Shown: positions 4,237-31,366, counted from the first letter of the stretch. The stretch: 41,927 nt of DNA from an uncultured Methanosarcinales archaeon (GCA_964419615.1 CAYQPU010000011.1:1-41927), one strand, 5' to 3'. Notes: generated from the sequence alone by a model not told the origin. Translations and numbers: made by a program.

Positions 4237-4273
4237 CACTCATCAGTAGCAATTCATTCACAATATTTATAAA
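4237..4273 (+). promoter_or_regulatory. ACT-N4-AGT box plus TATA (TTTATAAA 4266-4273) of the 4289 gene
   Basis: CACTcatcAGT at 4237-4247, 18 nt upstream of the TATA; weakest copy of the five-member motif. Confidence 0.5.
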
Positions 4274-4288
4274 CCAATAAAATATCCT

Positions 4289-4870
4289 ATGAATATGCAA
4301 ATCACATCTCCACAATTAATTGGTGAAGTAAAATCATTAGAATGTGGACATTTTCTTTATTTTTGTGCTTTTTATCCTGAAATTGATAAGGATATATCTA
4401 AAGATATATTTCAAACTGCAATGACAGAAATTGGTGATGGTACTAGACAGATTGGATTATATAAAATCCTCCAAAAACAAAATCTATCTGATAAAGAGAT
4501 CAAATCATGGTTACCAACAAGAAGTATTCTCTTAAGTCAATCACTTTATCAAGAAGAAATAGATGAACTCAGTTATTTAGCACACCAAGGATTAGTTGAA
4601 AATGGACTCAATCCAGATCTAGTAGAATTACACTACTTTGAAGACTTTGGAAACAGAGCAAATTTTGCTGTGTATTTTGACCTACACAAAGACATCAAGC
4701 AGATCCTGGAAAAAATGGAAACTGTAATGGATATTGATGTTGTTAGAGTAGAAGAAACAGGAAGGTATTTTCAACACATATTCAAATGTTATGAATCAGT
4801 TTCACCAGGAATGTATTCTGAATTATTTGTAAAAGCAGCCTATAGAATTCCATGGGATTTGTATGAATAA
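4289..4870 (+). CDS. Hypothetical protein
   Basis: 193-aa ORF; ATG about 23 nt after the TATA start (likely leaderless); no family recognised. Confidence 0.6.
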   Translation: MNMQITSPQLIGEVKSLECGHFLYFCAFYPEIDKDISKDIFQTAMTEIGDGTRQIGLYKILQKQNLSDKEIKSWLPTRSILLSQSLYQEEIDELSYLAHQGLVENGLNPDLVELHYFEDFGNRANFAVYFDLHKDIKQILEKMETVMDIDVVRVEETGRYFQHIFKCYESVSPGMYSELFVKAAYRIPWDLYE

Positions 4871-4873
4871 AAA

Positions 4874-5022
4874 TCCCCTCTCCCAGAAATCCCCAGAAAT
4901 TGTGAACAACTTCTGTTTTGAACTGGGAACCTTTCGGTCACGGCTGGCAAGTTTTCATTGTTTCTTAATAGAACCTCAACTTGCACCTACAGCCGAACGC
5001 TCTGCCGTTGAGCTAAGAGGGG
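4874..5022 (-). tRNA. tRNA-Tyr: tRNA-Tyr(GTA) with two introns (4939-4986 at position 37/38; 4888-4916 at position 59/60); CCA not encoded
   Basis: Minus strand: acceptor CCCCTCT/AGAGGGG+A73 (C1:G72, archaeal Tyr identity), D-arm GCTC-AACGGCA-GAGC, anticodon arm TTCGG-CTGTAG|A-CCGAA, variable loop AGGTT, T-arm CCCAG-TTCAAA|T-CTGGG. Removing a 48-nt and a 29-nt insert gives a perfect cloverleaf. Confidence 0.93.
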
Positions 5023-5046
5023 CTAAGTAAAAGTATTAATAAACCA

Positions 5047-5054
5047 TATATAAA
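5047..5054 (-). promoter_or_regulatory. TATA box of tRNA-Tyr
   Basis: TTTATATA on the minus strand ending 25 nt upstream of tRNA position 1. Confidence 0.7.
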
Positions 5055-5072
5055 TATTATGGATAATAAGCA

Positions 5073-5225
5073 TGGTTAGCACTACCCTGGCCAGATAAGT
5101 GAGCGAGACCATAATCATCGTAAGAAACAATAAGGTGCAGTTTGTCAAATCTTAGGATAAATTTAGATTGGTTTTGCTAGTAAGCTAACAAAATGTCGAG
5201 TGAACAGGCCCGGCAGTGCTAACCA
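5073..5225 (-). ncRNA. Unassigned structured RNA candidate (~153 nt)
   Basis: Perfect 11-bp terminal helix TGGTTAGCACT/AGTGCTAACCA extended by a GC-rich helix, plus three internal hairpins that use G-U pairs only on the minus strand. No ORF. Confidence 0.6.
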
Positions 5226-5250
5226 AAGAACAAAGTAAAAAACCCAATTA

Positions 5251-5316
5251 AAAAGAAAACCTTAAATACGACTTAATTGATCCAAACAAAATTCTCATGA
5301 ATAACAGTGGGAGGTG
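5251..5316 (+). promoter_or_regulatory. BRE/TATA promoter and SD for the 14-aa micro-ORF
   Basis: AAAAGAAAAC-CTTAAATA (5251-5268) and GGGAGGTG (5309-5316), 5 nt before ATG 5322. Confidence 0.55.
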
Positions 5317-5321
5317 CACAA

Positions 5322-5366
5322 ATGAGCTTTGAAAACAAAGAAATGGATGATCTTGAGGAATGGTGA
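5322..5366 (+). CDS. 14-aa acidic micropeptide MSFENKEMDDLEEW
   Basis: Below the ORF-track cut-off; perfect SD, upstream TATA, downstream hairpin plus T-tract. Confidence 0.5.
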   Translation: MSFENKEMDDLEEW

Positions 5367-5377
5367 TTAAACCTTTT

Positions 5378-5398
5378 AATAAGTAACTTATTTTTTTT
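5378..5398 (+). terminator. Hairpin plus T-tract after the micro-ORF
   Basis: AATAAG-TAA-CTTATT followed by TTTTTT, between convergent genes. Confidence 0.4.
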
Positions 5399-5425
5399 AT
5401 TCTGTTTGTTCAAGTATTCTATCAA

Positions 5426-5695
5426 TTATAAACCAAAATCATCAATAAACTTATTTATCATCTCATACTTATCCAAAAACTGAAAACCTTTATCAGTAAG
5501 ACTAATACATTTCCCTTTTTTATCTTTAACTTCTCTAATAAATTCCTTTTCCTTTAACTCTTCAAAATACTTAGCAAAACCTTGAGAAGAAAGATTAGAA
5601 TATCTAAGTAAAGGTGTTGGTTTAATTGAATTCTTCTTATCTCTGATAATTCTTAAAATATCATAAATCACTTCTAGTCTTTGTCTTTTCCCCAT
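5426..5695 (-). CDS. Archaeal winged-helix protein (COG3432-like predicted regulator)
   Basis: RQRLEVIYDILRII...KPTPLLRYSNLS...YFEELKEKEFI...ISLTDKGFQFL pattern. Confidence 0.75.
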   Translation of the reverse strand: MGKRQRLEVIYDILRIIRDKKNSIKPTPLLRYSNLSSQGFAKYFEELKEKEFIREVKDKKGKCISLTDKGFQFLDKYEMINKFIDDFGL

Positions 5696-6327
5696 TTTAT
5701 AACTCTTAAGATCCTCATCACAATCAATCCAAACATACCAAGTGACAGTAAATTCAAAATAACTCTCACAAATAAGGTGAATCTCATATCTGACATACTC
5801 ACTACATTAAGTAGCCAAAAAACAAACAACAATACATAAACAATATACATTGAATTAAAAGGTTGTTTTCTTAAAACAGCTGCAAGTAAAATCAAAACAA
5901 AAAAGCCAAGTTGAGCTAAAATAAGCACAGTTGGATTATTAAAAAACAACACTAATAGTGCTAATAAAACTGCAAGTATATGTGGGCTAACAATCCCATC
6001 TAATTTTTTCCAAAGCACACTATAAAACAAAGACATAATAGCAACAGTGCTAAAGTAAGTTGTTAATAATAAACTAAAATGCATTAAATATCTGGGTGGA
6101 AATAATCTTAATCCAAAATTTAAGATTGAAATAGGTATGAACAAAAACCTACATAAATACGCAACTCCAAAAAACAAAAATGCATGCCTAAAATACTTAA
6201 TACCCTTGTGGCTTGATAAATCTTGTAGATCCTTTGTCTTTATGTAAATAAAAATACAAAGCACAATAACTGCTACAGAATACAAAGCTTCAAATCCAAT
6301 TAAGTGTAATGGCATAGGTGGCCGCAT
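5674..6327 (-). CDS. Multi-pass membrane protein
   Basis: About 7 hydrophobic segments; overlaps the wHTH start by 22 nt (operon, possible sensor/regulator pair). Confidence 0.7.
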   Translation of the reverse strand: MRPPMPLHLIGFEALYSVAVIVLCIFIYIKTKDLQDLSSHKGIKYFRHAFLFFGVAYLCRFLFIPISILNFGLRLFPPRYLMHFSLLLTTYFSTVAIMSLFYSVLWKKLDGIVSPHILAVLLALLVLFFNNPTVLILAQLGFFVLILLAAVLRKQPFNSMYIVYVLLFVFWLLNVVSMSDMRFTLFVRVILNLLSLGMFGLIVMRILRVIKWGKDKD

Positions 6328-6374
6328 AAAATATTTGCAGCTCCTTTTATTTATAAATTCTATGGATCTTTAGT

Positions 6375-8999
6375 CTATTTATCCTTTAAAGCAGCATGAG
6401 CCGCAGCCAATCTTGCAATTGGAACTCTGTACGGAGAACAACTCACGTAATCAAGACCAATCTTATGACTGAATTCAATGCTTGATGGTTCACCACCATG
6501 TTCTCCACAAATACCAAGCTCAATCTTAGGATTAGTTTTTCTACCCTTTTCAACAGCAATCTGCATAAACTTTCCAACACCTGCTTGATCAAGTGCTTGG
6601 AAAGGATCTCTTGGGTAAATTCCCTTTTCCACATACTCCTTTAGGAACTTACCAGCATCATCCCTTGAAAAACCACATGTCATCTGAGTTAAATCATTAG
6701 TTCCAAAACTAAAAAACTCAGCTTCCTTTGCAATTTCATCTGCAGTAATAGCAGCTCTTGGAATCTCAATCATGGTTCCAATCATAATGTGAAGATCCAT
6801 GTCATGATTTTTCAGTGTCTCATCAATTACTTGCTTTACAACTTGCTTTTGATCAGCTAATTCTTTGACATTTCCAACCAAAGGAATCATAATCTCTGCA
6901 GTAACCTTAGTCTTCTTTTCCTTTGACACTTCACAAGCAGCCTCAACAATAGCTCTTGCCTGTATCTCAGTGATTTCAGGATAAGTTATTCCTAACCTAC
7001 ATCCTCTATGACCAAGCATAGGATTAAACTCATGCAAATCAGAAATTGTAGCTTTAATTTTATCAATGGTCACTCCCATCTCATTTGCAATCAATTTAAT
7101 ATCTTCCTCACTGTGAGGCAAAAATTCATGTAAAGGTGGATCTAATGTTCTTATAACAACTGGTTTATCTTCCATAACCTCAAACAATCCCTTAAAATCA
7201 GCCTTTTGAAATGGAAGTAAATCATCTAAAGCTTTTTCTCTGGCTTCCTTATTATCAGCAAGAATCATCTTTCTAACATGTTTAATTCTCTCACCATCAA
7301 AAAACATATGTTCTGTTCTGCATAATCCAATACCTTCAGCACCAAAACCAATTGCAGCTTTAGCATCTCTTGGAACATCAGCATTAGCTCTCACACCAAT
7401 CTTCCTGAAAGAATCTGCCCACTCCATGATCGATGCAAAACTTCCACCAACTTCTGGATCTTTGACAGGAAGCTGACTCTTAAACAATTCTCCAGTACTT
7501 CCGTCAAGAGTAATATAATCTCCTTGTTTAATGGTTGTGCCACTAACTAGAAATTGTTCTTTGTCATAATCAATAGCAATATCACCACAACCAGCAACAC
7601 AGCATTTACCCATTCCACGTGCAACAACAGCAGCATGACTAGTCATACCACCTCTTGCAGTAAGAATTCCTTTGGCAGCATTCATTCCCTCAATATCCTC
7701 TGGGCTTGTCTCAATCCTAACCAAAACAACATCCTTTCCTTTCTGAGCCCAATCATAAGCAGTATCAGCATCAAAAACAACCTCACCAACAGCAGCACCT
7801 GGACTTGCTGGAAGACCTCTTGCTAAAACCTCATGCTTATTCTTAGCTAATGGATCAATCTGTTTGTGTAATAATTGATCTAATTGATTTGGATCAACCC
7901 TTAACACAGCCTCTTTTTTATCAATCAATCCTTCGTAAACCATATCAACAGCAATCTTTACTGCAGCTTGCGCAGTTCTCTTTCCAGACCTTGTCTGGAG
8001 AATGTAAAGTTTACCTTTTTGTATTGTAAACTCCATATCCTGCATCTCTTTATAGTGCAGCTCAACCTTTTTGTAATTATCAACAAGCTCGTCATATACT
8101 GGTTGATTAATCTTCTTCAACTCTTCAATATCAAGAGGAGTTCGAATTCCAGCAACAACATCTTCTCCCTGAGCATTCATTAAAAACTCTCCATAAAATT
8201 CATTAGTTCCTGTTGATGGATTTCTTGTAAACAAAACACCAGTTCCAGAACTCTCTCCCAGATTGCCATAAACCATAACTTGCACATTAACAGCAGTCCC
8301 TTTTAATCCAGTAATGTTATTAATTCTCCTGTAAGACACAGCTCTCTTATTTGACCAAGAATCAAACACAGCATCAACTGACATCTTTAGCTGCTTAATA
8401 GGATCATCTGGAAACTGTTTGCCAACATTATCAACAATAATCTCTTTGTATTTGTCGACCAATTTCTTTAAATCATCTGCATCAAGTTCTGTATCAAACT
8501 TAACACCTTTAGTTTCTTTGGCATAATCCAAAGCCTCTTCAAACTTATGATGATCAACACCCATCACCACATTACCAAACATCTGGATAAATCTTCTATA
8601 AGAATCCCAGGCAAACCTCTCATTACCCGACTTCTTAGCCAAACTTAAAACAGTCTTATCATTCATACCTAAATTTAGTACAGTATCCATCATCCCCGGC
8701 ATTGAGATTGCGGCTCCTGACCTGACAGACAAAAGTAAAGGATTTTCTTCATCCCCAAACTTTTGACCCATATCTTCTTCTAACTTTTTTATATTCTCTT
8801 CAATTTCTTTTTTCAAACCCTCTGGCCACTTGTTTTCTTTATTAATATAACCACAAGCTTTAGTTGTTAGAGTAAAACCAGGAGGAACAGGAATCCCAAT
8901 ATTTGTCATCTCACTTAAATTAGCACCCTTGCCACCAAGAAGTTCTTTCATCTCTTTTTTTCCATCACCAAAATAATAAACATATTTCATATAATACAC
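6375..8999 (-). CDS. ppdK: Pyruvate, phosphate dikinase
   Basis: LLGGKGANLSEM, PLLLSVRSGA, SMPGMMDTVLNLG, GGMTSHAAVVARG (catalytic His), GIGLCRTEHMF, FFSFGTNDLTQ, GICGEHGG; 874 aa. Confidence 0.98.
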   Translation of the reverse strand: MYYMKYVYYFGDGKKEMKELLGGKGANLSEMTNIGIPVPPGFTLTTKACGYINKENKWPEGLKKEIEENIKKLEEDMGQKFGDEENPLLLSVRSGAAISMPGMMDTVLNLGMNDKTVLSLAKKSGNERFAWDSYRRFIQMFGNVVMGVDHHKFEEALDYAKETKGVKFDTELDADDLKKLVDKYKEIIVDNVGKQFPDDPIKQLKMSVDAVFDSWSNKRAVSYRRINNITGLKGTAVNVQVMVYGNLGESSGTGVLFTRNPSTGTNEFYGEFLMNAQGEDVVAGIRTPLDIEELKKINQPVYDELVDNYKKVELHYKEMQDMEFTIQKGKLYILQTRSGKRTAQAAVKIAVDMVYEGLIDKKEAVLRVDPNQLDQLLHKQIDPLAKNKHEVLARGLPASPGAAVGEVVFDADTAYDWAQKGKDVVLVRIETSPEDIEGMNAAKGILTARGGMTSHAAVVARGMGKCCVAGCGDIAIDYDKEQFLVSGTTIKQGDYITLDGSTGELFKSQLPVKDPEVGGSFASIMEWADSFRKIGVRANADVPRDAKAAIGFGAEGIGLCRTEHMFFDGERIKHVRKMILADNKEAREKALDDLLPFQKADFKGLFEVMEDKPVVIRTLDPPLHEFLPHSEEDIKLIANEMGVTIDKIKATISDLHEFNPMLGHRGCRLGITYPEITEIQARAIVEAACEVSKEKKTKVTAEIMIPLVGNVKELADQKQVVKQVIDETLKNHDMDLHIMIGTMIEIPRAAITADEIAKEAEFFSFGTNDLTQMTCGFSRDDAGKFLKEYVEKGIYPRDPFQALDQAGVGKFMQIAVEKGRKTNPKIELGICGEHGGEPSSIEFSHKIGLDYVSCSPYRVPIARLAAAHAALKDK

Positions 9000-9137
9000 C
9001 TCAATATTGTTTTTATAAATACAAGTTTTAGATATGGTTTTATAAATATTGTTAGAAATAAAAACAACTGTTAAATAATCTAGATAAGATAGAGATTATT
9101 TCTAAGGCAGTTTCTAGCGATAATTTATTAAATATCT

Positions 9138-9914
9138 GTGTTTAACTCAAAAACACACATGGTATATCCGAACTTTATTAATAAGCATCTTGAAGAAGCA
9201 TTAATCAAACCTGATCACACAGGTGAGCAAAAAAGAAAATTCAAAAACAAAATTCCTGAAAAATGCATAATAACTTATCAAGAAGAGGTTTTCAATTTTA
9301 TTTACAAAAAACATCGTCACAAAGCAAAAAAACTTAGTGCAGAAACATTATGGGGATGCAAAGCATATTACACAGAAAAATTTGTTTTTGTATTGATGAA
9401 TGGGGTAGGAGCACCGCATGCAACAATTGTATTTGAAGAACTCATTGAACTTGGAATTAAAGAATTTTTAAACATTGGAATTGCAGGAGGTCTTGAAAAA
9501 CCCGGATTTTATATTTGTGAAAAAGCAATAAGAGATGAAGGAACAAGCCAGCACTATTTGCCTCATTCAAAATTTTCATATCCTGACAAAGAACTCACAG
9601 AAAAATTAGAGCAGTCGTTTAATAAACTGAATATAAAATATACAAAAGGAATAAACTGGACAATAGACGCTTTTTTTAGGGAGACAAAATCTGAAGTTGA
9701 GGAATACAAAAAACAAGGTGTTCTTACAGTTGAAATGGAGATATCTGCATTGTTTGTTGTGGCAAAAATCAGAAAAGTGAAAATTGCAGCAGCATTCTTC
9801 ACAAGTGATGTGTTTGCAGACAAATGGGAAAGCCTCTATAAAAAAGATCTTAAATTAGTGATCAACAGCTTGGACACACTAGCAAAAGTAGCAGTTGACT
9901 GTTTCAAAGGTTAA
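9138..9914 (+). CDS. Nucleoside phosphorylase (PNP/UDP family 1)
   Basis: GVGAPHATIVFEELIELG, NIGIAGG, AIRDEGTSQHY, WTIDAFFRET, VEMEISAL motifs; start may be ATG 9159. Confidence 0.9.
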   Translation: MFNSKTHMVYPNFINKHLEEALIKPDHTGEQKRKFKNKIPEKCIITYQEEVFNFIYKKHRHKAKKLSAETLWGCKAYYTEKFVFVLMNGVGAPHATIVFEELIELGIKEFLNIGIAGGLEKPGFYICEKAIRDEGTSQHYLPHSKFSYPDKELTEKLEQSFNKLNIKYTKGINWTIDAFFRETKSEVEEYKKQGVLTVEMEISALFVVAKIRKVKIAAAFFTSDVFADKWESLYKKDLKLVINSLDTLAKVAVDCFKG

Positions 9915-10012
9915 TACAATAAATAAAAATATGGATCTTAAGTGTACATTATCCCTTCTTCTTGCTTATAAATTAGCACATTCTTACTTTGCTTAATCAT
10001 GGAGGTGAAAAC

Positions 10013-10507: not shown

Positions 10508-10515
10508 TTTTTTTG

Positions 10516-14793: not shown

Positions 14794-14835
14794 TTTAACC
14801 ACTAATAAGTGATAAAAAACCGGAAGATTTATATA
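14794..14835 (+). promoter_or_regulatory. ACT-N4-AGT palindrome plus BRE/TATA of the 14858 gene
   Basis: TTTAACCACT-aata-AGTGATAAAA, then AAGA-TTTATATA (14828-14835); 17-nt gap from AGT to TATA. Confidence 0.7.
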
Positions 14836-14857: not shown

Positions 14858-15289
14858 ATGAGTGCTACAAGTGCTAATACGGGAATAAAGTACCTAATTG
14901 GCAAACGACGTGTAGTTTGGCATTTCTCAGATGGTAATGGATCAAAATATGCTCATGTTGTTCCAATATCTTCATTAGATGAAGAAATACAAAAAAAGTT
15001 TGAAGATTGGGATTTTGTTCAAACTGGATATCATACTGTTGAAAAACTTATTCTACTAGCTTTGACAAGGGAAACTGATAATGATAAAGTATTAATTGGA
15101 ATGTATGATTCAAGTTATCTAGGAGCACATCCTACAGATCTTGGACTCATTTTTCAGCATGTAATTCCACTAGATACAGACCATACTCCTACAGGGGAAT
15201 ACCATCGAGTTATCGACCTATTATTAAGAAATGGATGTGCTGCATCATACGAAGAGAGTCACAATAGCAGCTTGGCGCATTGTCCCTAA
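14858..15289 (+). CDS. Hypothetical protein (paralog of 15367 gene)
   Basis: ORF track starts at TTG 14837 inside the promoter; ATG 14858 fits leaderless spacing from the TATA. Confidence 0.55.
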   Translation: MSATSANTGIKYLIGKRRVVWHFSDGNGSKYAHVVPISSLDEEIQKKFEDWDFVQTGYHTVEKLILLALTRETDNDKVLIGMYDSSYLGAHPTDLGLIFQHVIPLDTDHTPTGEYHRVIDLLLRNGCAASYEESHNSSLAHCP

Positions 15290-15366
15290 ACTATATATCT
15301 TTTCTTACTATTTTTAAATAATTAATCATAGCAAAATTTATATATTATTTTAATTCTTTTAAATTA

Positions 15367-15753
15367 ATGGCAAAAAACAGTTTACATCTACTAGCTGGTT
15401 GCGAAGATCATGCTTTAGTAACATCTGGATCTACCAAATGGTATGAAAATGAGTGGCATGATATTTCTAATAATCATACAGAAGTTTTTAATGGTTATAG
15501 CAGAGTGATGGTTGGATTCCATGGACGGCAAGATATATACGATGATGATTTAGTATTGTTGGCACTAGTTCCAAAAGATTGCTGTTCTCCAAAGTTATTA
15601 TTTGCAATGTATGGTGCTCAAGATTATAACTGTAGATCAATAAATTTTGGAAGTGTTGCAAAAGGTCTCTTAGCAGATAAAAAAGATTTTATTGATAACT
15701 TACTTGAACAATACATTAAACCACCTAAAGTATCAGAAGATATTGAACACTAA
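15367..15753 (+). CDS. Hypothetical protein (paralog of 14858 gene)
   Basis: 128 aa; own TATA TTTATATA near 15337; shares the LLAL...(G/A)MY motif with the upstream gene. Confidence 0.55.
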   Translation: MAKNSLHLLAGCEDHALVTSGSTKWYENEWHDISNNHTEVFNGYSRVMVGFHGRQDIYDDDLVLLALVPKDCCSPKLLFAMYGAQDYNCRSINFGSVAKGLLADKKDFIDNLLEQYIKPPKVSEDIEH

Positions 15754-18938: not shown

Positions 18939-19334
18939 TTAATGTTGTCTTATAGAAAGGTTAGTATCTGATCTTAATACTGTGGGCCAGGGATTGCAAT
19001 AACCTTGTGAAACTGGTTTTTTCCTAACTAGATTGTCAGGAGAAAAATCATATAGTTTGGTTCCTAGTTCATCCCAATAGACTGTCACCCTTTCACCTGG
19101 ATCAATTCCTACTGCTTTACACTCATCATCAAGTCTTAAAAATATAATCTTGCCTTCTGGATCAAATCTATGAAGATAGGCTCCATTGCTATCATAGTCT
19201 AGTTGTGCTGTTGAGATTCTTACAGGTCCTAAATATTCTTCTCTTCTTTCTAAAGTAAGGCCGAACTTACATTTGACATAGTTCCAATACTGTTCAATTG
19301 CTTCTTCAAAATTGGATCCTGCTAATAGTTTCAT
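18939..19334 (-). CDS. Hypothetical protein
   Basis: ATG 19334 about 25 nt after TATA TTTATATA; no family recognised. Confidence 0.55.
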   Translation of the reverse strand: MKLLAGSNFEEAIEQYWNYVKCKFGLTLERREEYLGPVRISTAQLDYDSNGAYLHRFDPEGKIIFLRLDDECKAVGIDPGERVTVYWDELGTKLYDFSPDNLVRKKPVSQGYCNPWPTVLRSDTNLSIRQH

Positions 19335-19498
19335 AATTAATAAGAAACACATAAAATATATAAATTTTCTTGAATCATTTTGTTATCATTTCAGTGAATG
19401 AATTAGATATAGAATTAAATCTCTCTATTTTGAACTCTTTTCATAATTTTGTGTAAATTCTGAATATTATCTATTGTAATTACCAAAATATGTTTAGT

Positions 19499-20107
19499 TT
19501 ATTTCAGTCTGTAAAACTCATCAAAATCTTTTGATCTCTCAAACTCAAAACCAATCTCTGAAAACAACATTTCTACCTTACTAGAATCATATATCCATCC
19601 ATTCTTGTTTCTTAATAAATTCTGAACATGATCTGGATCAGCATACTTTGCCCATCTCATAACAAAATTACTGCAATCCCTTAGCGGAAGAGAAACTAAT
19701 AGCCCATTTCTTGAAACTCTTCTTGATTCTTCTAGTATATTCCTAACTCCTTTTTTTGTTGGAATATGTTCCAGAATCTGAGGTAGCAAGACAACATCAA
19801 AACTTTTTGAAGCATAAGGTAAAACACTTCCATCCCCAATACAAAATAATACTCTATCCTTAATACTTTTGCTAGTTCTTGCAACAGCTTCCTCCAACCT
19901 ACCTTGTGAAATATCATAACCTGCAGCATAAGAAATTGCTTTTTTTTCTAGCAAGGTTCTGAATATGTAGCCTTCAGCAGTTCCAACTTCAAGAATTGTA
20001 TCTGATTCATGAAAATAGCTTAGTTCTTTAATCACTTTTTCTGGAGTATTAAAAAACTCGGCCCATACTTCTGCTTCAAATAAATTATAGAAATTTTGAA
20101 AATTCAT
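19499..20107 (-). CDS. Class I SAM-dependent methyltransferase
   Basis: ILEVGTAEG (motif I), GYDIS, GDGSVLPYASKSFDVVLLPQILEHI. Confidence 0.9.
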   Translation of the reverse strand: MNFQNFYNLFEAEVWAEFFNTPEKVIKELSYFHESDTILEVGTAEGYIFRTLLEKKAISYAAGYDISQGRLEEAVARTSKSIKDRVLFCIGDGSVLPYASKSFDVVLLPQILEHIPTKKGVRNILEESRRVSRNGLLVSLPLRDCSNFVMRWAKYADPDHVQNLLRNKNGWIYDSSKVEMLFSEIGFEFERSKDFDEFYRLK

Positions 20108-20157
20108 CTTTATTATAGGGAATAATTATTAATATAAAAACCTTATTAGTTTAGTAA

Positions 20158-20547
20158 TTAATCAAGTTCTAAAGCTTCTAATATCAAATCAAGCTTTTTA
20201 TTAATCTCTTTTAATTCATTAGAGCCAGATCTGCCTCTGCCAGAGTCTCTGCTTGGTTTTTTAAAACAATCACTGCAATAAACAGGCTTGCTAGAAGTTG
20301 GTTTAAATGGCACTTCACATGTCTTTCCACACTTATCACAAGTTACCTCATGCATTTCAGGTGATCTTCCTCTGCCACCTCTTGAGTCTCTTCTAGGGCG
20401 TCTACCACCTGAGGATTCTCTTCTACCAAATCTAGGTGGTCTGGAATCTCTTCTTGAACCTCTGGAATCTCCACGAGAACCTCTATTATTTCCTCTGTCT
20501 GATCTGCCTCTTCCTCTCCCTGAACCTCTTCTCTCTCTGGGTGCCAT
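20158..20547 (-). CDS. Arg/Gly-rich protein with CxxC-x17-CxxC zinc ribbon
   Basis: MHEVTCDKCGKTCEVPFKPTSSKPVYCSDCF; RG/RS low-complexity flanks; C-terminal short coiled coil. Confidence 0.9.
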   Translation of the reverse strand: MAPRERRGSGRGRGRSDRGNNRGSRGDSRGSRRDSRPPRFGRRESSGGRRPRRDSRGGRGRSPEMHEVTCDKCGKTCEVPFKPTSSKPVYCSDCFKKPSRDSGRGRSGSNELKEINKKLDLILEALELD

Positions 20548-20638
20548 TGTATGCAAGTGGTTGCCTGTAAGTATATATATGTGTTTGCATTTGTATACTT
20601 CACAAGATTTATTATTGATTTTATATCTCCACTATACC

Positions 20639-21313
20639 ATGAGTGATGTAAAGTACTGGTGTATCCGTGGAGCATATAGGTTTTTCACTTTCTATAAAAA
20701 CAGGGAAATCATTGGCCTTGAAAACTTCCCAAAAAAAGGTCCAGTTGTTTTTGTTGCTAATCATATTAAAAGTAAAGGCCCAACAAACATTGTATCAACA
20801 CTACCAGTGAGATTTCATATCTGGGTGAAAGCAGAACCTGTTGATTATAAAACTGCACCAGCCTATGTAAGACAAGATTACTTGGAAAAAGAACTCAACT
20901 TACCAAGAATTCTGTCCTACCCTCTGTCCTATCCTATAGGCTTGGTAACTGCAGCTATGATGCATGGAATTGATGCTATCTCAGTCAATGACTCTGATGG
21001 ATCAATAATAAACACATTCATAAAAACACAGAATTTATTGGAACAAAAAAAGTATGTACTTATCTTTCCAGAAGACCCAAGTAAAGATCCTGTTGATGTA
21101 GAGTCTGGTACTAAACCTTTTCTATCTGGAATGTGTACAGTAGGAGAAGTTTATAAAAGGAGAACAGACAGTATCTTAGACTACATTCCAATAGGTGTTC
21201 ATGAAAAAGGAATACTAAACATTGGACAACCTATTCCATACATTGGTGATCATGATGTATTATGTGATCAACTTGAAAACAGAGTTATTGAATTGTATCA
21301 TGATCTTGTTTGA
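20639..21313 (+). CDS. Lysophospholipid/glycerol acyltransferase (PlsC superfamily)
   Basis: IIGLENFPKKGPVVFVANH (motif I, divergent after NH), VLIFPED (motif III), YIPIG. Track start 20288 is antisense overlap; ATG 20639 follows a TATA. Confidence 0.75.
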   Translation: MSDVKYWCIRGAYRFFTFYKNREIIGLENFPKKGPVVFVANHIKSKGPTNIVSTLPVRFHIWVKAEPVDYKTAPAYVRQDYLEKELNLPRILSYPLSYPIGLVTAAMMHGIDAISVNDSDGSIINTFIKTQNLLEQKKYVLIFPEDPSKDPVDVESGTKPFLSGMCTVGEVYKRRTDSILDYIPIGVHEKGILNIGQPIPYIGDHDVLCDQLENRVIELYHDLV

Positions 21314-21353
21314 AAAAATGTAGTGAAATATTGTATCTTTTGTACTGGTGGAT

Positions 21354-21641
21354 TTACATTCTTCTTTTAACATAAAGTGTTGATAATGCTTTGGTTACCA
21401 CCATAACTCCCAGTACAAAATAAACACTGTAATGTATTGCTGATGCATCATTAAGATTTGTGATCAGATCATACAAAGCAACTCCAATTAAAGCCGCAAT
21501 TGCAGCAAAAGAGCAATTTCTCTCAATAATCAGTTGATGCATTCTTTCTCTTTCATCATGGTGTTCATCAAGTTGCATTGAAATATGGATAGCATCAAGA
21601 GAGATCAATACTACAAATATAGCTAAGACTATTAATTTCAT
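21354..21641 (-). CDS. Small three-helix membrane protein
   Basis: Hydrophobic segments with HDERERMH linker (DERE-type motif). Confidence 0.55.
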   Translation of the reverse strand: MKLIVLAIFVVLISLDAIHISMQLDEHHDERERMHQLIIERNCSFAAIAALIGVALYDLITNLNDASAIHYSVYFVLGVMVVTKALSTLYVKRRM

Positions 21642-22245
21642 CCTTGTGATAATCAGTAATTAGTATTAAGCTCTCATCCCAAATATCAGAACCTTCACGG
21701 TTAAAACCAATAACCATTCCTGGCTGGATCTTATTGAGTTTTTCAAAATCAATCCCCTGTTCAATAATCCAATCTAATTGTGCATTATATAATTCTTCGT
21801 CCTCCGGATTGTCAAATCTACATCTTTCCATGTAAGCGCTTTTCATACCACTTGCAAAGATTTGCTCGTCTCTTTTCTCAGTCTTTGGAATCCTATGCTT
21901 TGCATTACTCATAAGATGAAAATATCCTTCTTGAAACTCTGGATCATATACACCCATCCCAGGAAATAGTTCTTCTGCTGTTGCTACAAAGAAATAATTT
22001 CTATCACTCATTAAATTACTTACACCATGCTTTTCTCTTAGTTCACCAGCAAAAAGCATAGCCCCAATACCTGAAGCACAAGCTGCATCAAAGAAAACAC
22101 TATCGTCAAATTCAACAGATTCATCAGCAGTATAAACCCTATCATCCTTAACATCCAGCATAACAACACCAGGCGGAAGAACACTCGCATCTTCCAAAGC
22201 AGCCTCAATCAAATCATCAACTAAATATTCTTTTGTAATATCCAT
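21595..22245 (-). CDS. Acidic hypothetical protein
   Basis: 216-aa ORF with own promoter; no family recognised. Confidence 0.6.
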   Translation of the reverse strand: MDITKEYLVDDLIEAALEDASVLPPGVVMLDVKDDRVYTADESVEFDDSVFFDAACASGIGAMLFAGELREKHGVSNLMSDRNYFFVATAEELFPGMGVYDPEFQEGYFHLMSNAKHRIPKTEKRDEQIFASGMKSAYMERCRFDNPEDEELYNAQLDWIIEQGIDFEKLNKIQPGMVIGFNREGSDIWDESLILITDYHKDEINSLSYICSIDLS

Positions 22246-22296: not shown

Positions 22297-22333
22297 TATA
22301 TAAATCTTTCTATTTTTATCACTGCGAAGTACT
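22297..22333 (-). promoter_or_regulatory. ACT-N4-AGT palindrome plus BRE/TATA of the 22245 gene
   Basis: Minus strand: tACT-tcgc-AGTGATAAAAAtagAAAGA-TTTATATA; 16-nt gap. Confidence 0.7.
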
Positions 22334-22338
22334 GAAAA

Positions 22339-25151: not shown

Positions 25152-25394
25152 TCACTCACTTTGAGAATCATCCTGAAAAAAGCTTGAATAAGCTGCATCA
25201 TATTCTTCTTCTGAAATGATCTGTTTTTTAATTAGTAAATTAATTAGAACATCAACCTTATCATTGGCATGGTCAGCCAAATCTTCAGTACTCATTTCTT
25301 GTTCCTGAGTATCATCTAGATTTTCTGCACTTTCCATCTCTTGAGTTGCAGGTTCCACTTTCGGCACTTCATTGCTTGGACTAAATTCTTCCAT
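25152..25394 (-). CDS. Small acidic hypothetical protein
   Basis: SD GGAGG before ATG; C-terminal DVLINLLIKKQIISEEEY motif. Confidence 0.7.
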   Translation of the reverse strand: MEEFSPSNEVPKVEPATQEMESAENLDDTQEQEMSTEDLADHANDKVDVLINLLIKKQIISEEEYDAAYSSFFQDDSQSE

Positions 25395-25480: not shown

Positions 25481-25522
25481 TTTTACCACTCTTTAGTTAA
25501 TATAAATCAAAAGATTTAAATA
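25481..25522 (+). promoter_or_regulatory. ACT-N4-AGT palindrome plus BRE/TATA of the 25569 gene
   Basis: TTTTACCACT-cttt-AGT, then AAGA-TTTAAATA (25515-25522); 17-nt gap. Confidence 0.7.
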
Positions 25523-25568: not shown

Positions 25569-26033
25569 GTGGAGATGGATAGTGTTTTTGATTCCATAAT
25601 CAAATGTTTAGATTATCTTGACGAACATGGTGAAAATGAGACTCCTTCTGCAAGAGCTATTGTTCATGTGATGCAAGAAAAATTTTACTTGGGCGCAATT
25701 GATCTGTTTTTAGATAGAGCCAGAGCTTCAGCTCATAAACAAGATTATAAATCAGCTGAGCGTTTGATATCACAACTTATTGACATAGATGCTAGGACTG
25801 ATGATGATCATGGAGATTTATTTGACGAAATTAGAAAAAACTGTTATCCAATCTCAGTTGATGCATTATACAATGAAGCACTTTCTACAGTTTCAAGCGA
25901 GGAAGCTACTCCTCATGATAAAGATAATTATGTTTGCTATCTCTCACAATGGGGAAGATTGAATGACCAAGATGTAGTAGTTATGGTTGAAAATGTTGTG
26001 GCTGCATATGAAAATTCTTTGCTCGAAGATTAA
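25569..26033 (+). CDS. Helical hypothetical protein
   Basis: 154 aa, acidic; one TPR-like segment (ASAHKQDYKSAERLISQ). Confidence 0.6.
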   Translation: MEMDSVFDSIIKCLDYLDEHGENETPSARAIVHVMQEKFYLGAIDLFLDRARASAHKQDYKSAERLISQLIDIDARTDDDHGDLFDEIRKNCYPISVDALYNEALSTVSSEEATPHDKDNYVCYLSQWGRLNDQDVVVMVENVVAAYENSLLED

Positions 26034-26088
26034 TAATAACAAACTATAAAAACACAAATTCTTTTGAAAGCAGATTAGAGGTGATCTT

Positions 26089-26271: not shown

Positions 26272-26366
26272 TATATTCTATTTTTTTCCCCTTAATTTCT
26301 AGCCAAGTTGAATTTAGATATATTACAATAGAAAAAATTATATACCCTGTTTTTCTAAAATACATT

Positions 26367-28625
26367 ATGAAAAAAGAGGTTGTAGTATTATCACTAATCC
26401 TATTACTAATAATTGGCTGTGCTGATCAAAAAGCAAATGAGGAGATTTCCGAAGAAAGAACAGATGATTACATTGATAAAACAAAAGACTCTATTAACCA
26501 CCAAGATACAGTAGATTCCAATGAAATTGTACCTGCGCCGATTATCAATGAAAAAATCAAAGGATATTGGAGTTCTCGTTCTGGAATGGTCCTCTCAGAA
26601 CTAGATGATGCTGAACAAATGAAAGAAATTGGCATCAACACAATTACATTTTCTCCTTCACACACTCATTCTCAAGAGGGTAAAGTAACTGAACGACCCG
26701 GTTCAGAATCAATGATAAAAAAAGCAATTAACAAAGCACATAAAGCTGGATTTCGAGTAATGCTAGAAACAACTCCTATGAACGCAGGCATAGTTGCTCC
26801 GAAAGTTACAGATGTAAGTTTATTTGAAGCAGTTGACAGCATGGCACGATTGCGAGCTCAATGTATTGCTGAAACAGCACTACCTGAACAATTAGTTGAG
26901 GAATATTTTAACCTTTCGTGTTTTCTTGCAGACATCTTTTTTGAACTAGCTGACCAGCATACAATTAACAAATTGGAAGTACTTGTTGGTTACATGAACG
27001 AACATGAAGCTCTGATGAACTATGATTCTTGTCAAAGACCATTTTGGATGAAGCATTTACCTGAATTTGTTCAAACATTGGATGAAGTATTAATCCAATT
27101 GTATGGCGCTAGTTATGGATCACTTGACCAAGGGCACCACATTGTTTCTGCACTTAAAAACTTTTGTGCAAGAGCTGAGGGAGAGGAAGTGCAAGAGTTG
27201 ATATTTTCTTCAATATCCCCTTTAGGTGGTGTTGTACGCGGTATTGATGCACAAAATTATATGCTCTTTAATTCAGTGGAACAAGAAAATGGAGCAGATT
27301 TGGTTTTTGAGCAGGGTGACTATCTTGATGAACTCAAAAGAAAAATCAAACTTGCAAGAAGTATTGGGTATCAGGCAATAACTACAACAGTAAATGAAGA
27401 TCAGCTTAGTGAGATTTCCAAACTATACCCCCTTTATAGAAGAATTGGTCAAACAGGGGGGAGAAAAGGACGTCGTCATAAAGTACAAATCCCACTTAAT
27501 GAGCCACCAGAACACAATTATTCAGAACAAATGGCAGATAGGTTACTAGACGCCATCTCTGATCAACCCAACATTGGTTTACTAAAAAGATTATTTCCAA
27601 ATGACTATCTTAATACTTTATTCACCACAGATTTTAGTCGAGTTGAAAAAAAAGTACTAAAAGGACTAAAACACATGGACATTGATAGAGACGCAATAGA
27701 GTATGAAGGACTGGGTGATTTGTATGAGACTATTGCTGCATTTTTGGTATCATTAAGTGAATTTGAAGCTCAACATCAGCATCCGATTGGGAGTAAGGTG
27801 GTGGTAAATAATAATATTGATGATTTTCGTGTTGAAGATCTTTGGACAGGTAGTGTGGGTGAAATACTTGATATAAACTTATCTGTTCTTTCTTTAATTG
27901 TGACAATAGGGAAAAAAAGAGGGAGGGGAAAGCCTAAAAACGATTATTATTGGGAAGATGAGTATTCATGTTTGCAGTTAGAAAAACCTGGCCGGAACTT
28001 TGAATATGGTCATCTGTTTTCTGGAGATGCCTTAATGCCTGGAGATATTGTTGAAATAATTAAAGTATCTGATGATGATGAATTCAATCCAGATGTTGGT
28101 AGCATCGCAGAAGTAATAGGTCCAACCTATGTAGTTAAATTCAACAAGATTGTAGACAAACGTGGCAGAGAACTTGACTTTACCTCAACAGAAAGATGTG
28201 TGAATCACGCCGTTATTGATGTAATTGAATATGGAACAGTTCATGATGTCCATGAATCTGTTGATGACAGATTCAGAAAAGCAATAGATAAATCAGAACT
28301 TGCAGAATTTAAGTTTGAATCATTTAACTATCAGGATGTTTTGGGTATTGTCCACCAAGAAGTAATCCAAGGTTATGGAAAAAGAACAATTTGCTGTACA
28401 GATCCCAATAATCCCCAAGATAATTTTATATTACTGACATATGTTGAACCCTGTGAAAAAGAAGAAATGGCATCATTTTCTTTAGATCCTTTCCAAGATT
28501 TGGTTAATAATAATTTTTCTGATAGTGCATTTTCAGACTTTGCAGCTGAAGTAAATCCTGTTTACATAAATATGAGAGTAATTGAAAATGGAAGACAAAT
28601 TAATTATCTCGAAGGTAGAAGATAA
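26367..28625 (+). CDS. 752-aa ORF: lipoprotein signal plus truncated glycoside-hydrolase-like TIM-barrel start fused to an unrelated ~600-aa region
   Basis: LLIIGC lipobox; MKEIGINTITF and AINKAHKAGFRVML resemble the first strands of GH113/GH5-like barrels; this character stops after KVTDVSLF (~26820). Confidence 0.6.
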   Translation: MKKEVVVLSLILLLIIGCADQKANEEISEERTDDYIDKTKDSINHQDTVDSNEIVPAPIINEKIKGYWSSRSGMVLSELDDAEQMKEIGINTITFSPSHTHSQEGKVTERPGSESMIKKAINKAHKAGFRVMLETTPMNAGIVAPKVTDVSLFEAVDSMARLRAQCIAETALPEQLVEEYFNLSCFLADIFFELADQHTINKLEVLVGYMNEHEALMNYDSCQRPFWMKHLPEFVQTLDEVLIQLYGASYGSLDQGHHIVSALKNFCARAEGEEVQELIFSSISPLGGVVRGIDAQNYMLFNSVEQENGADLVFEQGDYLDELKRKIKLARSIGYQAITTTVNEDQLSEISKLYPLYRRIGQTGGRKGRRHKVQIPLNEPPEHNYSEQMADRLLDAISDQPNIGLLKRLFPNDYLNTLFTTDFSRVEKKVLKGLKHMDIDRDAIEYEGLGDLYETIAAFLVSLSEFEAQHQHPIGSKVVVNNNIDDFRVEDLWTGSVGEILDINLSVLSLIVTIGKKRGRGKPKNDYYWEDEYSCLQLEKPGRNFEYGHLFSGDALMPGDIVEIIKVSDDDEFNPDVGSIAEVIGPTYVVKFNKIVDKRGRELDFTSTERCVNHAVIDVIEYGTVHDVHESVDDRFRKAIDKSELAEFKFESFNYQDVLGIVHQEVIQGYGKRTICCTDPNNPQDNFILLTYVEPCEKEEMASFSLDPFQDLVNNNFSDSAFSDFAAEVNPVYINMRVIENGRQINYLEGRR

Positions 28626-29136
28626 ACTCTTTTCACTTCTTGAAACTAGACTTACCCAATTAGATATACCTCAACTATTGGTAAAGAAGATAAAAATATG
28701 GGATGTTCTTAAAATAGAACATATCGATGATAAAACCTTTGGAGAAAATACTTCTTATGGTCCAGAAGGAATCATTCAAGAAATTAGAAATGATTATTTT
28801 TTAGGATCAATAATTGGAATAGGTGATCCAGCAGGCATATATGTACCAATAGCTTATTTTATTGCTCAACTCCACATAGATGAAAAATTTACAATGGAGT
28901 TGGTTTCAGGAGCCACAGTTCCTGGTGAATATAGAAAACAAGGAATATTCACAATGTTCATGGATGCTTATGAAGAGATTGCAACTCAAATTGGATGTGA
29001 ATCACTAGTATGTGCAACAAATGAAAAAAATGGTTTGTTTAATTATCTTAGTGCAAGAGGTTTTGCAAAAGACTCAACAATACAAGATCATTATGGTGAA
29101 GGTGAACACGGATTTTTAATGAGTAAAGGACTATAA
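28588..29136 (+). CDS. GNAT-fold acetyltransferase-like protein
   Basis: ATVPGEYRKQGIFTMFM (motif A), LFNYLSARGF (motif B). Confidence 0.7.
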   Translation: MEDKLIISKVEDKLFSLLETRLTQLDIPQLLVKKIKIWDVLKIEHIDDKTFGENTSYGPEGIIQEIRNDYFLGSIIGIGDPAGIYVPIAYFIAQLHIDEKFTMELVSGATVPGEYRKQGIFTMFMDAYEEIATQIGCESLVCATNEKNGLFNYLSARGFAKDSTIQDHYGEGEHGFLMSKGL

Positions 29137-29150
29137 ACTCACCGTGTAAA

Positions 29151-29393
29151 TTACTTTACAGTATCATTCAAACACTTTGGAAAATAAGTAAACTTATGCT
29201 CACTAAGAATCATTGATAAATCATGTTGCTTTAAAGAATTACCCAAAATCTTCCTAATCTCCATTATAACTTCATTTGGCTCATCTCCAGTCTTAAGCCT
29301 GATCTCAAAACCAAAATCATGCTCAACAACCAGTTCATACAAATAAGTAACAAATTGATTTACTAAGAACAAAATTAGATGATCATTTTCCAA
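29151..29393 (-). CDS. Small hypothetical protein
   Basis: 80-aa ORF (TTG start) filling the gap between genes; no family recognised. Confidence 0.4.
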   Translation of the reverse strand: MENDHLILFLVNQFVTYLYELVVEHDFGFEIRLKTGDEPNEVIMEIRKILGNSLKQHDLSMILSEHKFTYFPKCLNDTVK

Positions 29394-29444
29394 CAGGATT
29401 ATGATTTTTTATTAAATTAAGCAATTTTTATATACTAGTATTAA

Positions 29445-30035
29445 TTGTTTATGCCTATGAAAATCACTGCAAACTTCATTACAACATTCAGACTAATATT
29501 GTTCTTTATTGGAGTTTCCTTTCTTTATATGAATAACAAAATCCTTCATCTACTGGTTGCACCAATTATCTTAATAGTTGTTTTACTAGATGCAGTTGAT
29601 GGGATTGTTGCAAGAAAACTAAAGTCAGAAACTCAATTTGGAGCTTTTTATGATATTGCAGCTGATCGTATAGTTGAACTCACAGTCTATGTGGTATTTG
29701 CACAATTGGGTTACATAAGTGTCTTAATTCCATTAATAGTAATGGTCAGAGGAATACTAACTGGAATGATGCGAAGTGTTGGTGCACTAAAAAAGAAAGC
29801 ACCATTTAAACTAAAATACACCAAAATAGGAAATTTCTTAGTGTCATCAAGATTTATGAGAGGAGGATATGGTGGGTTAAAGGTTGTAACCTTTGTGATG
29901 TTGGCATATTTATTCTATTTAACAAATCATGCTAATCCTGCAAACTGGTTTGTAATACTTGTAGATATACTGGTTTATTTGAGTGCATTAGTTTGCGTAT
30001 TAAGGGGTTTACCTGTTATAATAGAAGGAACTTAA
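29445..30035 (+). CDS. CDP-alcohol phosphatidyltransferase (PgsA-like)
   Basis: LDAVDGIVARKLKSETQFGAFYDIAADR matches the DG-x2-AR-x8-G-x3-D-x3-D signature; about 6 TM segments. Confidence 0.93.
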   Translation: MFMPMKITANFITTFRLILFFIGVSFLYMNNKILHLLVAPIILIVVLLDAVDGIVARKLKSETQFGAFYDIAADRIVELTVYVVFAQLGYISVLIPLIVMVRGILTGMMRSVGALKKKAPFKLKYTKIGNFLVSSRFMRGGYGGLKVVTFVMLAYLFYLTNHANPANWFVILVDILVYLSALVCVLRGLPVIIEGT

Positions 30036-30153
30036 TCTAGATCTCAAGCTTATCAAGTAAAATTAATATTAAGAAAGTGAAAGGAACAAAAGTTGTCTGT
30101 TATTTTTGCCTAATTACAAAAATATATTAATGAAATAATGTGTCAAAAGCTTT

Positions 30154-31293
30154 ATGAGATGGTTTAAATATATAATCATTATAGCATTCTTTATTATTGG
30201 GTGTAATAGTAATAGCCCTGCCTTTGATAGCATTACAACTTCTGGTACAATATACAAAGATGAGACCTGGTCAGGAGTCGTGAATATTACTGGAGATATC
30301 CATATCCCTTATGGGGTAACACTCACAATAAAACCCGGAACCCAAGTTATCATGAAAGCTAACTATGATGATACCAGAGTGGGTGGTGAACATATAATTG
30401 ATGAGGCAACAGATATAGATCCTTCTGCAACTCCAGAATATACAAAAACCCATATCAATTTTAATATACTCGGTGGTTTGTATGCTATAGGAGAACCAGA
30501 TAATCCAATTATTTTTACCTCAGATGCAAAAGAACCCAAACATACAGACTGGGATGGAATGACTTTTGAGAAGAACAGTGAAGGAATATTAAAATATGTA
30601 ATTGTTGAATACAGTCACACAGGCCCAGCACTACATGGAACGAACAAAGTTAACATATCACACAGTATAATAAGACACATATTCTGGGGTGGTCTACATG
30701 CATTTGAAAACTCACCTACTTTTGAATACAATGTCCTTTATGACATTGGCCATGAAGCATTTGATACTCACAAGGCAAGTCCAATAATTAGATTCAACAA
30801 CATTAGTAATGCTAGAACAGCATTTGTTTTTAATTATTATAACCATGCTTCAAAAAACCCCATACTGTTTGAGAACAACATTGTAAAAGATTCATCCTCC
30901 ATGGGTCAATTGCAAGAAAACGCATTTGTTATCATTAGAAAAAATACATTTATTGGTTCTGATAACACAGGAGGACCATGGCACTATAAAGGTTTTACAC
31001 TTGACTCTGAAGTGCATTCAAGATGTTTAGCTCTAGCAGACAATGTGAATGTGGAAATTGTGAACAATATATTTTCAAACTTTGAAGGATCAGCAATCTG
31101 CTATGAAAAAATTGGTCCAAACAAAGGTATAGGACACACAACAAATATACCAGAACCATTTGAAATAATTGGGCCAATAAAAATTTGGATAAAAAATAAT
31201 ATTTTTAATGGTTCTGATGATTTAGAATTCTTAAATGAGCTTACAGCATGGGAAAATGTTGAAGTAACAAATAATTATTATGCTCATATATAA
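30154..31293 (+). CDS. Right-handed parallel beta-helix protein, lipoprotein-like
   Basis: FFIIGC lipobox; ETWSGVVNITGDI.IP.GVTLTIKPGT, NPIIFTS, repeated I.(H/N)N.I units. Confidence 0.8.
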   Translation: MRWFKYIIIIAFFIIGCNSNSPAFDSITTSGTIYKDETWSGVVNITGDIHIPYGVTLTIKPGTQVIMKANYDDTRVGGEHIIDEATDIDPSATPEYTKTHINFNILGGLYAIGEPDNPIIFTSDAKEPKHTDWDGMTFEKNSEGILKYVIVEYSHTGPALHGTNKVNISHSIIRHIFWGGLHAFENSPTFEYNVLYDIGHEAFDTHKASPIIRFNNISNARTAFVFNYYNHASKNPILFENNIVKDSSSMGQLQENAFVIIRKNTFIGSDNTGGPWHYKGFTLDSEVHSRCLALADNVNVEIVNNIFSNFEGSAICYEKIGPNKGIGHTTNIPEPFEIIGPIKIWIKNNIFNGSDDLEFLNELTAWENVEVTNNYYAHI

Positions 31294-31324
31294 ATGAGTT
31301 TTTCTGATATTTAAATGTTTCTGT

Positions 31325-31366
31325 TTTTACCACTGTGGAGTCACTAAGATTCAAAAGATTATTATA
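31325..31366 (+). promoter_or_regulatory. ACT-N4-AGT palindrome plus BRE/TATA upstream of the CinA-like gene
   Basis: TTTTACCACT-gtgg-AGT, then AAGA-TTATTATA (31359-31366); 17-nt gap. Confidence 0.65.

Follow-up and report, generated by a model that had tools for sequence, protein, structure and literature searches.

The promoter modules of the window

The stretch considered here, 41,927 nt of genomic DNA (CAYQPU010000011.1:1-41927; referred to as a whole as the window), is contig C11 of a marine archaeal metagenome-assembled genome of the Woesearchaeota type within the DPANN archaea (G000; 1.48 Mb, 33% GC, 99% complete). Several of its intergenic regions carry a short palindrome, ACT-N4-AGT, directly upstream of the core promoter, that is, of B recognition element (BRE) plus TATA box. 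The same module occurs at one fixed position throughout the genome and throughout the class to which the organism belongs, and its palindrome is probably the operator of one global regulator, for which a pair of TrmBL2-like proteins encoded outside the window is the best candidate.

A previous reading of the window, made from the sequence alone, had described five such sites, 16–18 nt before a TATA box, and all five are present with the positions and gaps compiled in Table 1. The accompanying detail, namely AAGA directly before the TATA box together with at least one extended arm (TTTTAYCACT or AGTGRTAAAA) in four of them, also holds, as does the description of the genes behind them; Pfam assigns no family to four of the products and a CinA domain to the fifth. 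A degenerate sixth site (ATT-N4-AAT at 15310) adds to these five.

Table 1. Promoter modules of the window and the genes behind them (homologues: searches at a cut-off of E 1e-5 in five genomes of the same family; gap: nt between palindrome core and TATA box)
Feature	Position	Strand	Sequence elements	Gap	Matrix score	Remarks
Module 1 (weakest)	4231..4273	+	core ACTCATCAGT 4238-4247; TATA TTTATAAA 4266-4273	18	13.7	no AAGA-type BRE; ATG 4289, 23 nt past TATA start
Target gene 1	4289..4870	+				193 aa; no Pfam or PHROG family; 0 homologues
Module 2 (best of the window)	14794..14835	+	AACCACTAATAAGTGATAAAAAA, then CCGGAAGA, then TATA TTTATATA 14828-14835	17	22.1	site 14801; ATG 14858, exactly 30 nt past TATA start
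Target gene 2	14858..15289	+				143 aa; ORFan; no Pfam or PHROG family; 0 homologues
Module 3	15303..15344	+	degenerate core ATTTTTAAAT 15310-15319; TATA TTTATATA 15337-15344	17	14.5	ATG 15367, 30 nt past TATA start
Target gene 3	15367..15753	+				128 aa; no Pfam or PHROG family
Module 4	22297..22337	-	ACTTCGCAGTGATAAAAATAGAAAGA, then TATA TTTATATA 22304-22297	16	19.6	site 22321-22330; 9 nt beyond 3' end of radical-SAM gene
Target gene 4	21595..22245	-				216 aa; no known family (Pfam, PHROG); 0 homologues
Module 5	25481..25522	+	TTTTTTACCACTCTTTAGT, then AAAAGA, then TATA TTTAAATA 25515-25522	17	16.0 (plus), 15.6 (minus)	site 25488; better arm towards divergent gene 25152-25394
Target gene 5	25575..26033	+				152 aa; no known family (Pfam, PHROG); 0 homologues
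Module 6 (two-sided)	31308..31366	.	core ACTGTGGAGT 31332-31341; TATA TTATTATA 31359-31366 (plus) and TTTAAATA 31315-31308 (minus)	17 (plus), 16 (minus)		better BRE/TATA on minus side
Target gene 6	31453..32637	+				394 aa; Pfam CinA, E 4e-15; 0 homologues

Position, number and class-wide spread of the element

Crude gene calling on the entire genome gave 1780 open reading frames (ORFs; ~93% coding), and 475 gene-proximal TATA-like boxes across the genome served as the promoter set, with offsets counted from the TATA start. The distance from there to the ATG has a sharp peak at 30–31 nt (150 of the 475 promoters, 30 nt being the commonest value), for which reason leaderless mRNAs are taken to be dominant in this organism; the transcript from module 2, with its ATG at exactly 30 nt, would be one of them. 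The consensus BRE of these promoters is CGAAAG. The program aragorn found five tRNAs in the genome (intron-containing genes are missed), none of them with a usable upstream region.

As a bare string, ACT-N4-AGT is no commoner in the window than in shuffled sequences (11 observed vs 11.75 expected), so any significance must rest on its position and not on its number. It was by a genome-wide scan that the sequence-only reading could have been refuted, and the positional bias found there is strong: 12 promoters have the palindrome starting at -28, 7 at -27, and 7 at -26 (26 in total), while every other position from -60 to +60 has 0 or 1 (~0.2 on average); with spacers of N3 or N5 the same offsets yield two and no promoters. 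An unbiased positional scan for 4-mers in the 50 nt before the TATA box had as its top signals AAAA at -14, AGTA/AAGT/AGTG from -21 to -19, and CCAC/CACT/ACTT from -30 to -27. An iterated weight matrix converged on nnTntTtAcCACTttnaAGTggTnAAaAAa, and the refined consensus is TnTtAYCACT-N4-AGTRRTnAAAAA, followed by a near-consensus BRE/TATA, CGAAAGATTTATATA. The positional scan thus bears out the view that a single palindromic operator of the dimer type recurs, in copies, at a fixed place upstream.

Scored with this matrix, 57 of the 475 promoters (~12%, about one in eight) reach at least 8 bits at the right offsets, and two to three do so at shifted ones. The matrix of the 24-nt core alone has 171 strand hits in the genome vs 25–46 in shuffled genomes; these correspond to 103 unique sites, 98 of which are intergenic despite the high coding density. 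A strict TATA box lies 15–19 nt away on one side in 55 of the unique sites and on both sides in five (60 of 103; examples of the latter are C23:4597 and C4:54506). In all positioned copies the AGT arm ends 16–18 nt before the TATA box. The palindrome is 20–24 bp long, its centre lies 22 ± 1 bp before the first TATA base, or at about -52 relative to the start codon in genes that are mostly leaderless, and an A-tract links it to the BRE/TATA. Within the range scanned, no further positional peak follows beyond the TATA box, and overlap of the palindrome with BRE, TATA, or start site was never seen. The N4 spacer and the linker carry only 0.03–0.25 bits, and conservation does not extend past the TATA box; the 45-bp module as a whole, including A-tract and BRE, gives BLAST matches of 83–96% between unrelated loci and genomes. 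Promoters with the motif also have better BRE scores than the others (3.9 vs 1.7, p 2e-11), which holds when only leaderless ones are compared (3.95 vs 2.62, p 0.005).

Beyond this genome, the distribution of the element was followed with a composite pattern, ACTNNNNAGTRRT-N12-15-TTWAWAWA, which occurs 25 times in G000. It is present in 39 of 41 relatives representing 34 families of the order (among them the unpublished genome G006), and in 140 of the 151 genomes of a phylum-level sample, each of them a member of the class of G000; the genomes in such class-wide comparisons are related and hence not independent samples. The reversed pattern, used as a control, has mostly no occurrence in the same genomes. 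The strings matched in distant genomes repeat the whole module, i.e., AGT(A/G)GT(T/A)A, an A-tract, (C/T)(G/A)GAAAG, and TTTATA(A/T)A, which argues that the cis element is old and under selection in the class and is not a peculiarity of five genes. Where a small regulon of five scattered orphan genes had been proposed for the window, one genome alone has no fewer than 57 promoters with the element and about 100 sites, and it recurs class-wide.

Target genes and candidate regulators

The genes behind the element are mostly unannotated: a Pfam family was assigned to five of 26 scanned targets vs 17 of 34 other proteins of the window (Fisher p 0.017), the five being a CinA domain protein, a HAD hydrolase, a metallophosphoesterase, an RsmB/F methyltransferase, and a TFE-alpha paralogue. 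Several targets start with lipoprotein-like signal peptides. A viral origin was considered and rejected, as none of ten targets belongs to a PHROG family. In addition to the window targets, three further top targets were searched for in seven family genomes, including a 99%-complete genome of the same genus (G006 is part of these tallies). Together, seven of eight targets (the five of the window and two of the three others) lack homologues in the family genomes, and the eighth has a weak partial match; the protein of target gene 2 matches only itself among 5.8 billion proteins. An enrichment of ORFans among the targets is not established, however, because non-target unannotated genes are without family homologues in five of nine cases as well (p ~0.08, Fisher); the orphan bias is therefore treated as a lead, and no enrichment is claimed.

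As the five window targets have no family homologues, TFE served as a proxy for the comparison of orthologous promoters. The site is kept in only three of 29 promoters of TFE orthologues, those of the closest relatives (G001, G188, and, weakly, G036). By these comparisons, the set of genes behind the element is subject to fast turnover. G000 itself encodes three TFE-alpha paralogues, at C22:14861-15355, C15:33661-34149, and C3:2853-3317 (identity of the latter two with the first: 51% and 42%); the palindrome precedes the first only, and the same-genus genome G001 likewise has three TFE-alpha paralogues.

Target gene 4 belongs to a small accessory island (18939-22245; 3.5 kb, five ORFs, one of them a methyltransferase gene). 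The same-genus genome lacks this island in a region that is syntenic apart from it (G001:C40:9225-9768), the conserved neighbours flanking the gap. The CinA gene is followed on the same strand by genes for a U32 peptidase (32703-33881; Peptidase_U32, E 1.6e-78) and for 33912-34289, and the three possibly form one transcription unit. On the other side of module 6 (31234-31315, minus), the minus promoter CAGAAACATTTAAATA leads into nothing other than a leaderless 18-codon ORF, MSIIIICYFNIFPCCKLI, antisense to the 3' end of 30154-31293. This ORF contains four consecutive Ile codons; no Ile-related gene lies downstream.

As the regulator of the sites, the sequence-only reading had put forward a TrmB-like winged-helix protein encoded within the window at 38681-39538. 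This assignment has to be given up: the protein has no Pfam TrmB domain, only a weak, sub-threshold match to DUF7342, and no relative was found in the Protein Data Bank (PDB). It is present in seven of 81 class genomes, and since the motif occurs in 140 of 151 it cannot be the motif's reader. No site is found in its own promoter (best score 5.0), nor in those of two further regulators of the window, 5426-5695 (HTH_45) and 3078-3428 (HxlR). A paralogue in G000 (C19:4243-5079) is 40% identical and has one in-frame TAA; relatives with 44–46% identity are scattered in only six other class genomes, from which the family appears to be one of patchy accessory regulators.

G000 contains five to six genes with a TrmB domain, none of them inside the window. 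Two of these, designated type A (C3:5568-6365, 265 aa) and type B (C16:31581-32399, 272 aa), are TrmBL2-like. Both match Pfam TrmB (PF01978; E 3.9e-21 and 1.6e-18, respectively), and of Regulator_TrmB only profile positions 6-131 of 233 are matched, i.e., the C-terminal domain is truncated and lacks the sugar-binding part. Type A aligns over its full length with TrmBL2 of Pyrococcus furiosus (PDB 5BOX, 5BPD, 5BQT; residues 13-262 to 12-260, E 1.5e-20), while the alignment with the TrmB structure 3QPH comprises the N-terminus only. The recognition helix, VPRSRSYDVLESLEKKGF, is identical in types A and B and contains Tyr50/Asp51 of TrmB (VPRSRSY50D51VLESLEKKGF), two residues that PMC4158304 names. 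TrmBL2-like homologues, in which the recognition helix is invariant, are encoded in 150 of the 151 class genomes, nearly always in two copies and with 52–60% identity over the full length; the identity of TFE within the order alone is far lower (39–58%). In a quick maximum-likelihood tree the slow-evolving type B (clade support 100) is separated from the faster type A.

The promoters of the type-A genes themselves carry the element: among 23 relatives, which come from many families, 22 have ACT-N4-A(G/A)T, A-tract, and BRE/TATA arranged at the canonical offset, and by a strict count of the best hits per genome the site is present in 19 of 29 vs three of 48 neighbouring genes at these loci (Fisher p 3.5e-8). 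The G000 promoter has the same arrangement with a slightly weakened site, which is why type A is considered to be probably autoregulated. Leaders at type-A genes are unusual in length (50–105 nt). The promoters of the type-B genes present a different picture in that they are almost invariant across many families (AAAAAACGTAACATATTAATAGTAGTA; G000:C16:31390-31580, loci L099–L118) and retain only a proximal half-site-like stretch, AGTAGTA, right after the TATA box, with a leader of 58–100 nt; this arrangement may represent a second, repressive mode of control.

The eleven genomes without a match to the composite pattern have more divergent TrmBL2-like proteins (Mann–Whitney p 2e-5 for related, non-independent genomes), and of the genomes encoding the eight most divergent ones five are without a match. 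As the recognition helix is conserved in the genomes that lack the pattern, this association may reflect phylogenetic distance and not cause. Two of these genomes show related arrangements: at L124 (G034:C1, upstream of 396587) only 4 nt separate ACT-N4-AGT from the TATA box in the promoter of a TrmBL2-like gene, and at L122 (G053:C4, upstream of 101456) the distance between CACT and AGTG arms is about 9 nt. Both may have arisen when this system was rearranged in single lineages.

Mode of action, rival readings, and known systems

Taken together, the sites are probably operators of one global dimeric winged-helix regulator that acts from upstream, and the TrmBL2-like pair is its most likely identity. 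A TrmBL2-like dimer would bind the palindrome upstream of BRE/TATA and contact TBP or TFB from that side, most probably aiding their recruitment in the way TrmBL1 and Tgr do at upstream sites; one palindrome can serve two divergent promoters. Action on TBP/TFB from upstream is proposed because the site never overlaps BRE, TATA, or start site and because its spacing is kept within 1 bp. That the bound dimer activates is given about an even chance, by analogy: in PMC4158304 and PMC4706686, sites of TrmBL1, Tgr, and Halobacterium TrmB upstream of the BRE activate, and repression comes from sites that overlap or follow the promoter. A less probable alternative is that the dimer gates or represses promoters which are strong in themselves, in view of the better BRE scores, the accessory-like targets, and the known role of TrmBL2 as a repressor and chromatin protein.

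Several observations weigh against such a regulator or its proposed mode of action. The targets lack conservation as well as any function in common, which is unusual for a classical regulon, and the promoters with the motif have better BRE/TATA elements than the rest, unlike the weak promoters that are helped by Ptr2 or TFB-RF1. In Thermococcales, TrmBL2 is described as a repressing chromatin protein which binds coding as well as intergenic regions (PMC4158304); neither sequence-specific binding nor activation would be expected from such a protein. The recognition helix is essentially unchanged in genomes without the composite pattern, four to five further TrmB-family genes as well as other winged-helix proteins are encoded in the genome, and all links between the element and the TrmBL2-like candidates are circumstantial.

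With the same operator and the same TrmBL2-like reader, the system might also be a brake, in which the protein nucleates at the palindrome and holds the strong promoters of accessory or new genes off until a signal releases it. This is unlikely, and so is the attendant notion of an archaeal equivalent to silencing by chromatin proteins, even though TrmBL2 (TK0471) has a repressive effect on promoters to which it binds and behaves as a chromosomal protein (PMC4158304) and although better BRE scores, few Pfam families, and the general lack of family homologues among the targets would suit a brake. The archaeal repressors covered in PMC4158304 and PMC4706686 work by occluding the promoter or start site, which the palindrome never overlaps, and past the TATA box the palindrome has no positional peak; a spreading silencer would not require a spacing of ±1 bp, and the enrichment of ORFans is not established. 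A different possibility is that the palindrome is a general upstream promoter element of the class, read by the basal machinery, a TBP/TFB paralogue, or a constitutive architectural protein, and that it sets promoter strength without defining a regulon. Its spread through the class combined with fast turnover of the genes behind it, the lack of a function common to these, the conservation of the entire 45-bp module, and its enrichment among promoters with the best BRE/TATA are all as such a reading would have it; nevertheless, it is quite unlikely, as only about one promoter in eight carries the site, dyad symmetry and the strict N4 spacer indicate a dimeric, sequence-specific protein, and the site is kept at the promoter of one TrmBL2-like paralogue and not at TFE or neighbouring genes, which fits a regulator and its own gene. 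TFB contacts the BRE right beside the TATA box and not DNA some 20 bp further upstream.

Two further readings fare less well. The copies might be remnants of a small mobile promoter cassette, similar to a miniature inverted-repeat transposable element, which spread by copying and was not kept by selection for binding. Short, highly similar matches in unrelated contigs and genomes and the association with species-specific genes would be expected from it; yet the similarity is limited to functional positions, with next to no information in spacer and linker and nothing past the TATA box, and persistence at one offset class-wide and at type-A promoters, whose proteins are 55–60% identical, needs purifying selection, so that this origin is very improbable. 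Hardly credible, finally, is a private five-gene regulon under the winged-helix protein 38681-39538: the five sites are real and alike, and that protein does have an N-terminal winged-helix-like sequence, but the counts, 57 to ~100 sites for the genome and thousands for the class, stand against it, as do the missing TrmB domain and PDB relative, the narrow distribution of the protein, and its own site-free promoter. To return to the TrmBL2-like pair, a wider picture may be drawn in which the module is a standard socket that wires lineage-specific, newly arisen or acquired genes into expression in Woese- and Pacearchaeal DPANN; the pair would license or gate these genes, its own included, and the regulon would be defined by gene age and not by function. 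This picture is speculative and, as a whole, improbable.

DPANN make up a large share of archaeal diversity, and almost none are cultured. A full-text literature search found no description of the element or of TrmB-type regulation in these archaea, nor, among the papers searched, any account of their transcriptional control. New are the genome-wide positional statistics, the split into two paralogues with the site at type A, the exclusion of the window's own regulator, and the negative control on the orphan bias. They lead to a concrete model of one short site, one fixed distance to the TATA box, and one highly conserved candidate pair, for about one-eighth of the promoters and class-wide. 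If it is true, the TrmB family, with its sugar regulators and a chromatin protein, would come to include a global factor that acts close to promoters. The element would also help to predict promoters and start sites in metagenome-assembled genomes and marks a large block of unannotated genes which are probably co-expressed; should the link to species-specific genes hold, it would bear on how new genes gain expression.

Operators published for the TrmB family comprise TACT-N3-AGTA, TATCAC-N5-GTGATA, TACT-N7-8-GAGTA, and ATAATACT (PMC4158304), and the arms of the palindrome (tAYCACT-N4-AGTRRTa) combine their half-sites. The resemblance to the glycolytic motif of Thermococcales (TGM), one extra spacer base aside, that the sequence-only reading had pointed out is real; in the notation of this motif the element is TAYCAC-N6-GTGRTA. 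As in the case of TGM, which is bound by TrmBL1 in P. furiosus and by Tgr in Thermococcus kodakarensis, there are a palindrome, half-sites with the letters TAYCAC/GTGRTA, and a global, non-local regulon. Placement upstream of BRE/TATA exists in both systems and, as the sequence-only reading had likewise stated, gives activation in the case of TGM (PMC4158304, PMC4706686); in vitro, upstream TGM sites activated two of three templates (PMC4706686). They differ in the spacer, as TAYCAC-N5-GTGRTA has no occurrence in the genome and the N6 form has two, in the position, which here is upstream only and never downstream of the TATA box, and in the targets, which here are not genes of sugar metabolism (sugar uptake, glycolysis, or gluconeogenesis). 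The likely reader, too, is distinct from TrmBL1: with 265 aa it lacks the sugar-binding half, and it aligns best with TrmBL2.

With TrmBL2/TK0471 (PDB 5BOX, 5BPD, 5BPI, 5BQT) the candidate reader shares its length, the truncated C-terminal domain, and Tyr50/Asp51, and in Thermococcales, as here, this is the most conserved TrmB-type protein of the lineage. Thermococcales have one such protein, described as a chromatin protein and repressor on coding and intergenic DNA, whereas two ancient paralogues are present here and binding would be to a single site at one promoter position. The operators of TrmB from P. furiosus and Thermococcus litoralis and of VNG1451C from Halobacterium salinarum have the YACT/AGTR half-site core in common with the palindrome, and VNG1451C activates from sites upstream of the promoter (PMC4158304); here, the spacer is exactly four, the A/T-rich flanks are longer, far more promoters are concerned in relation to genome size, and no sugar-binding domain is evident in the candidate reader. 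Closest in proposed mechanism are Ptr2 of Methanocaldococcus jannaschii and TFB-RF1 of P. furiosus, for which it is cited in PMC4158304 and PMC4706686 that a dimer just upstream of BRE/TATA aids the binding of TBP or TFB; they too have a site that immediately precedes the BRE within a narrow range of distances, while the protein families are others and Ptr2 and TFB-RF1 act on few promoters with weak core elements instead of near-consensus BRE/TATA. Set beside these systems, the element is real and probably a TrmB-family operator used as a class-wide promoter element at a fixed position, which a TrmBL2-like dimer would read and from which it may activate.

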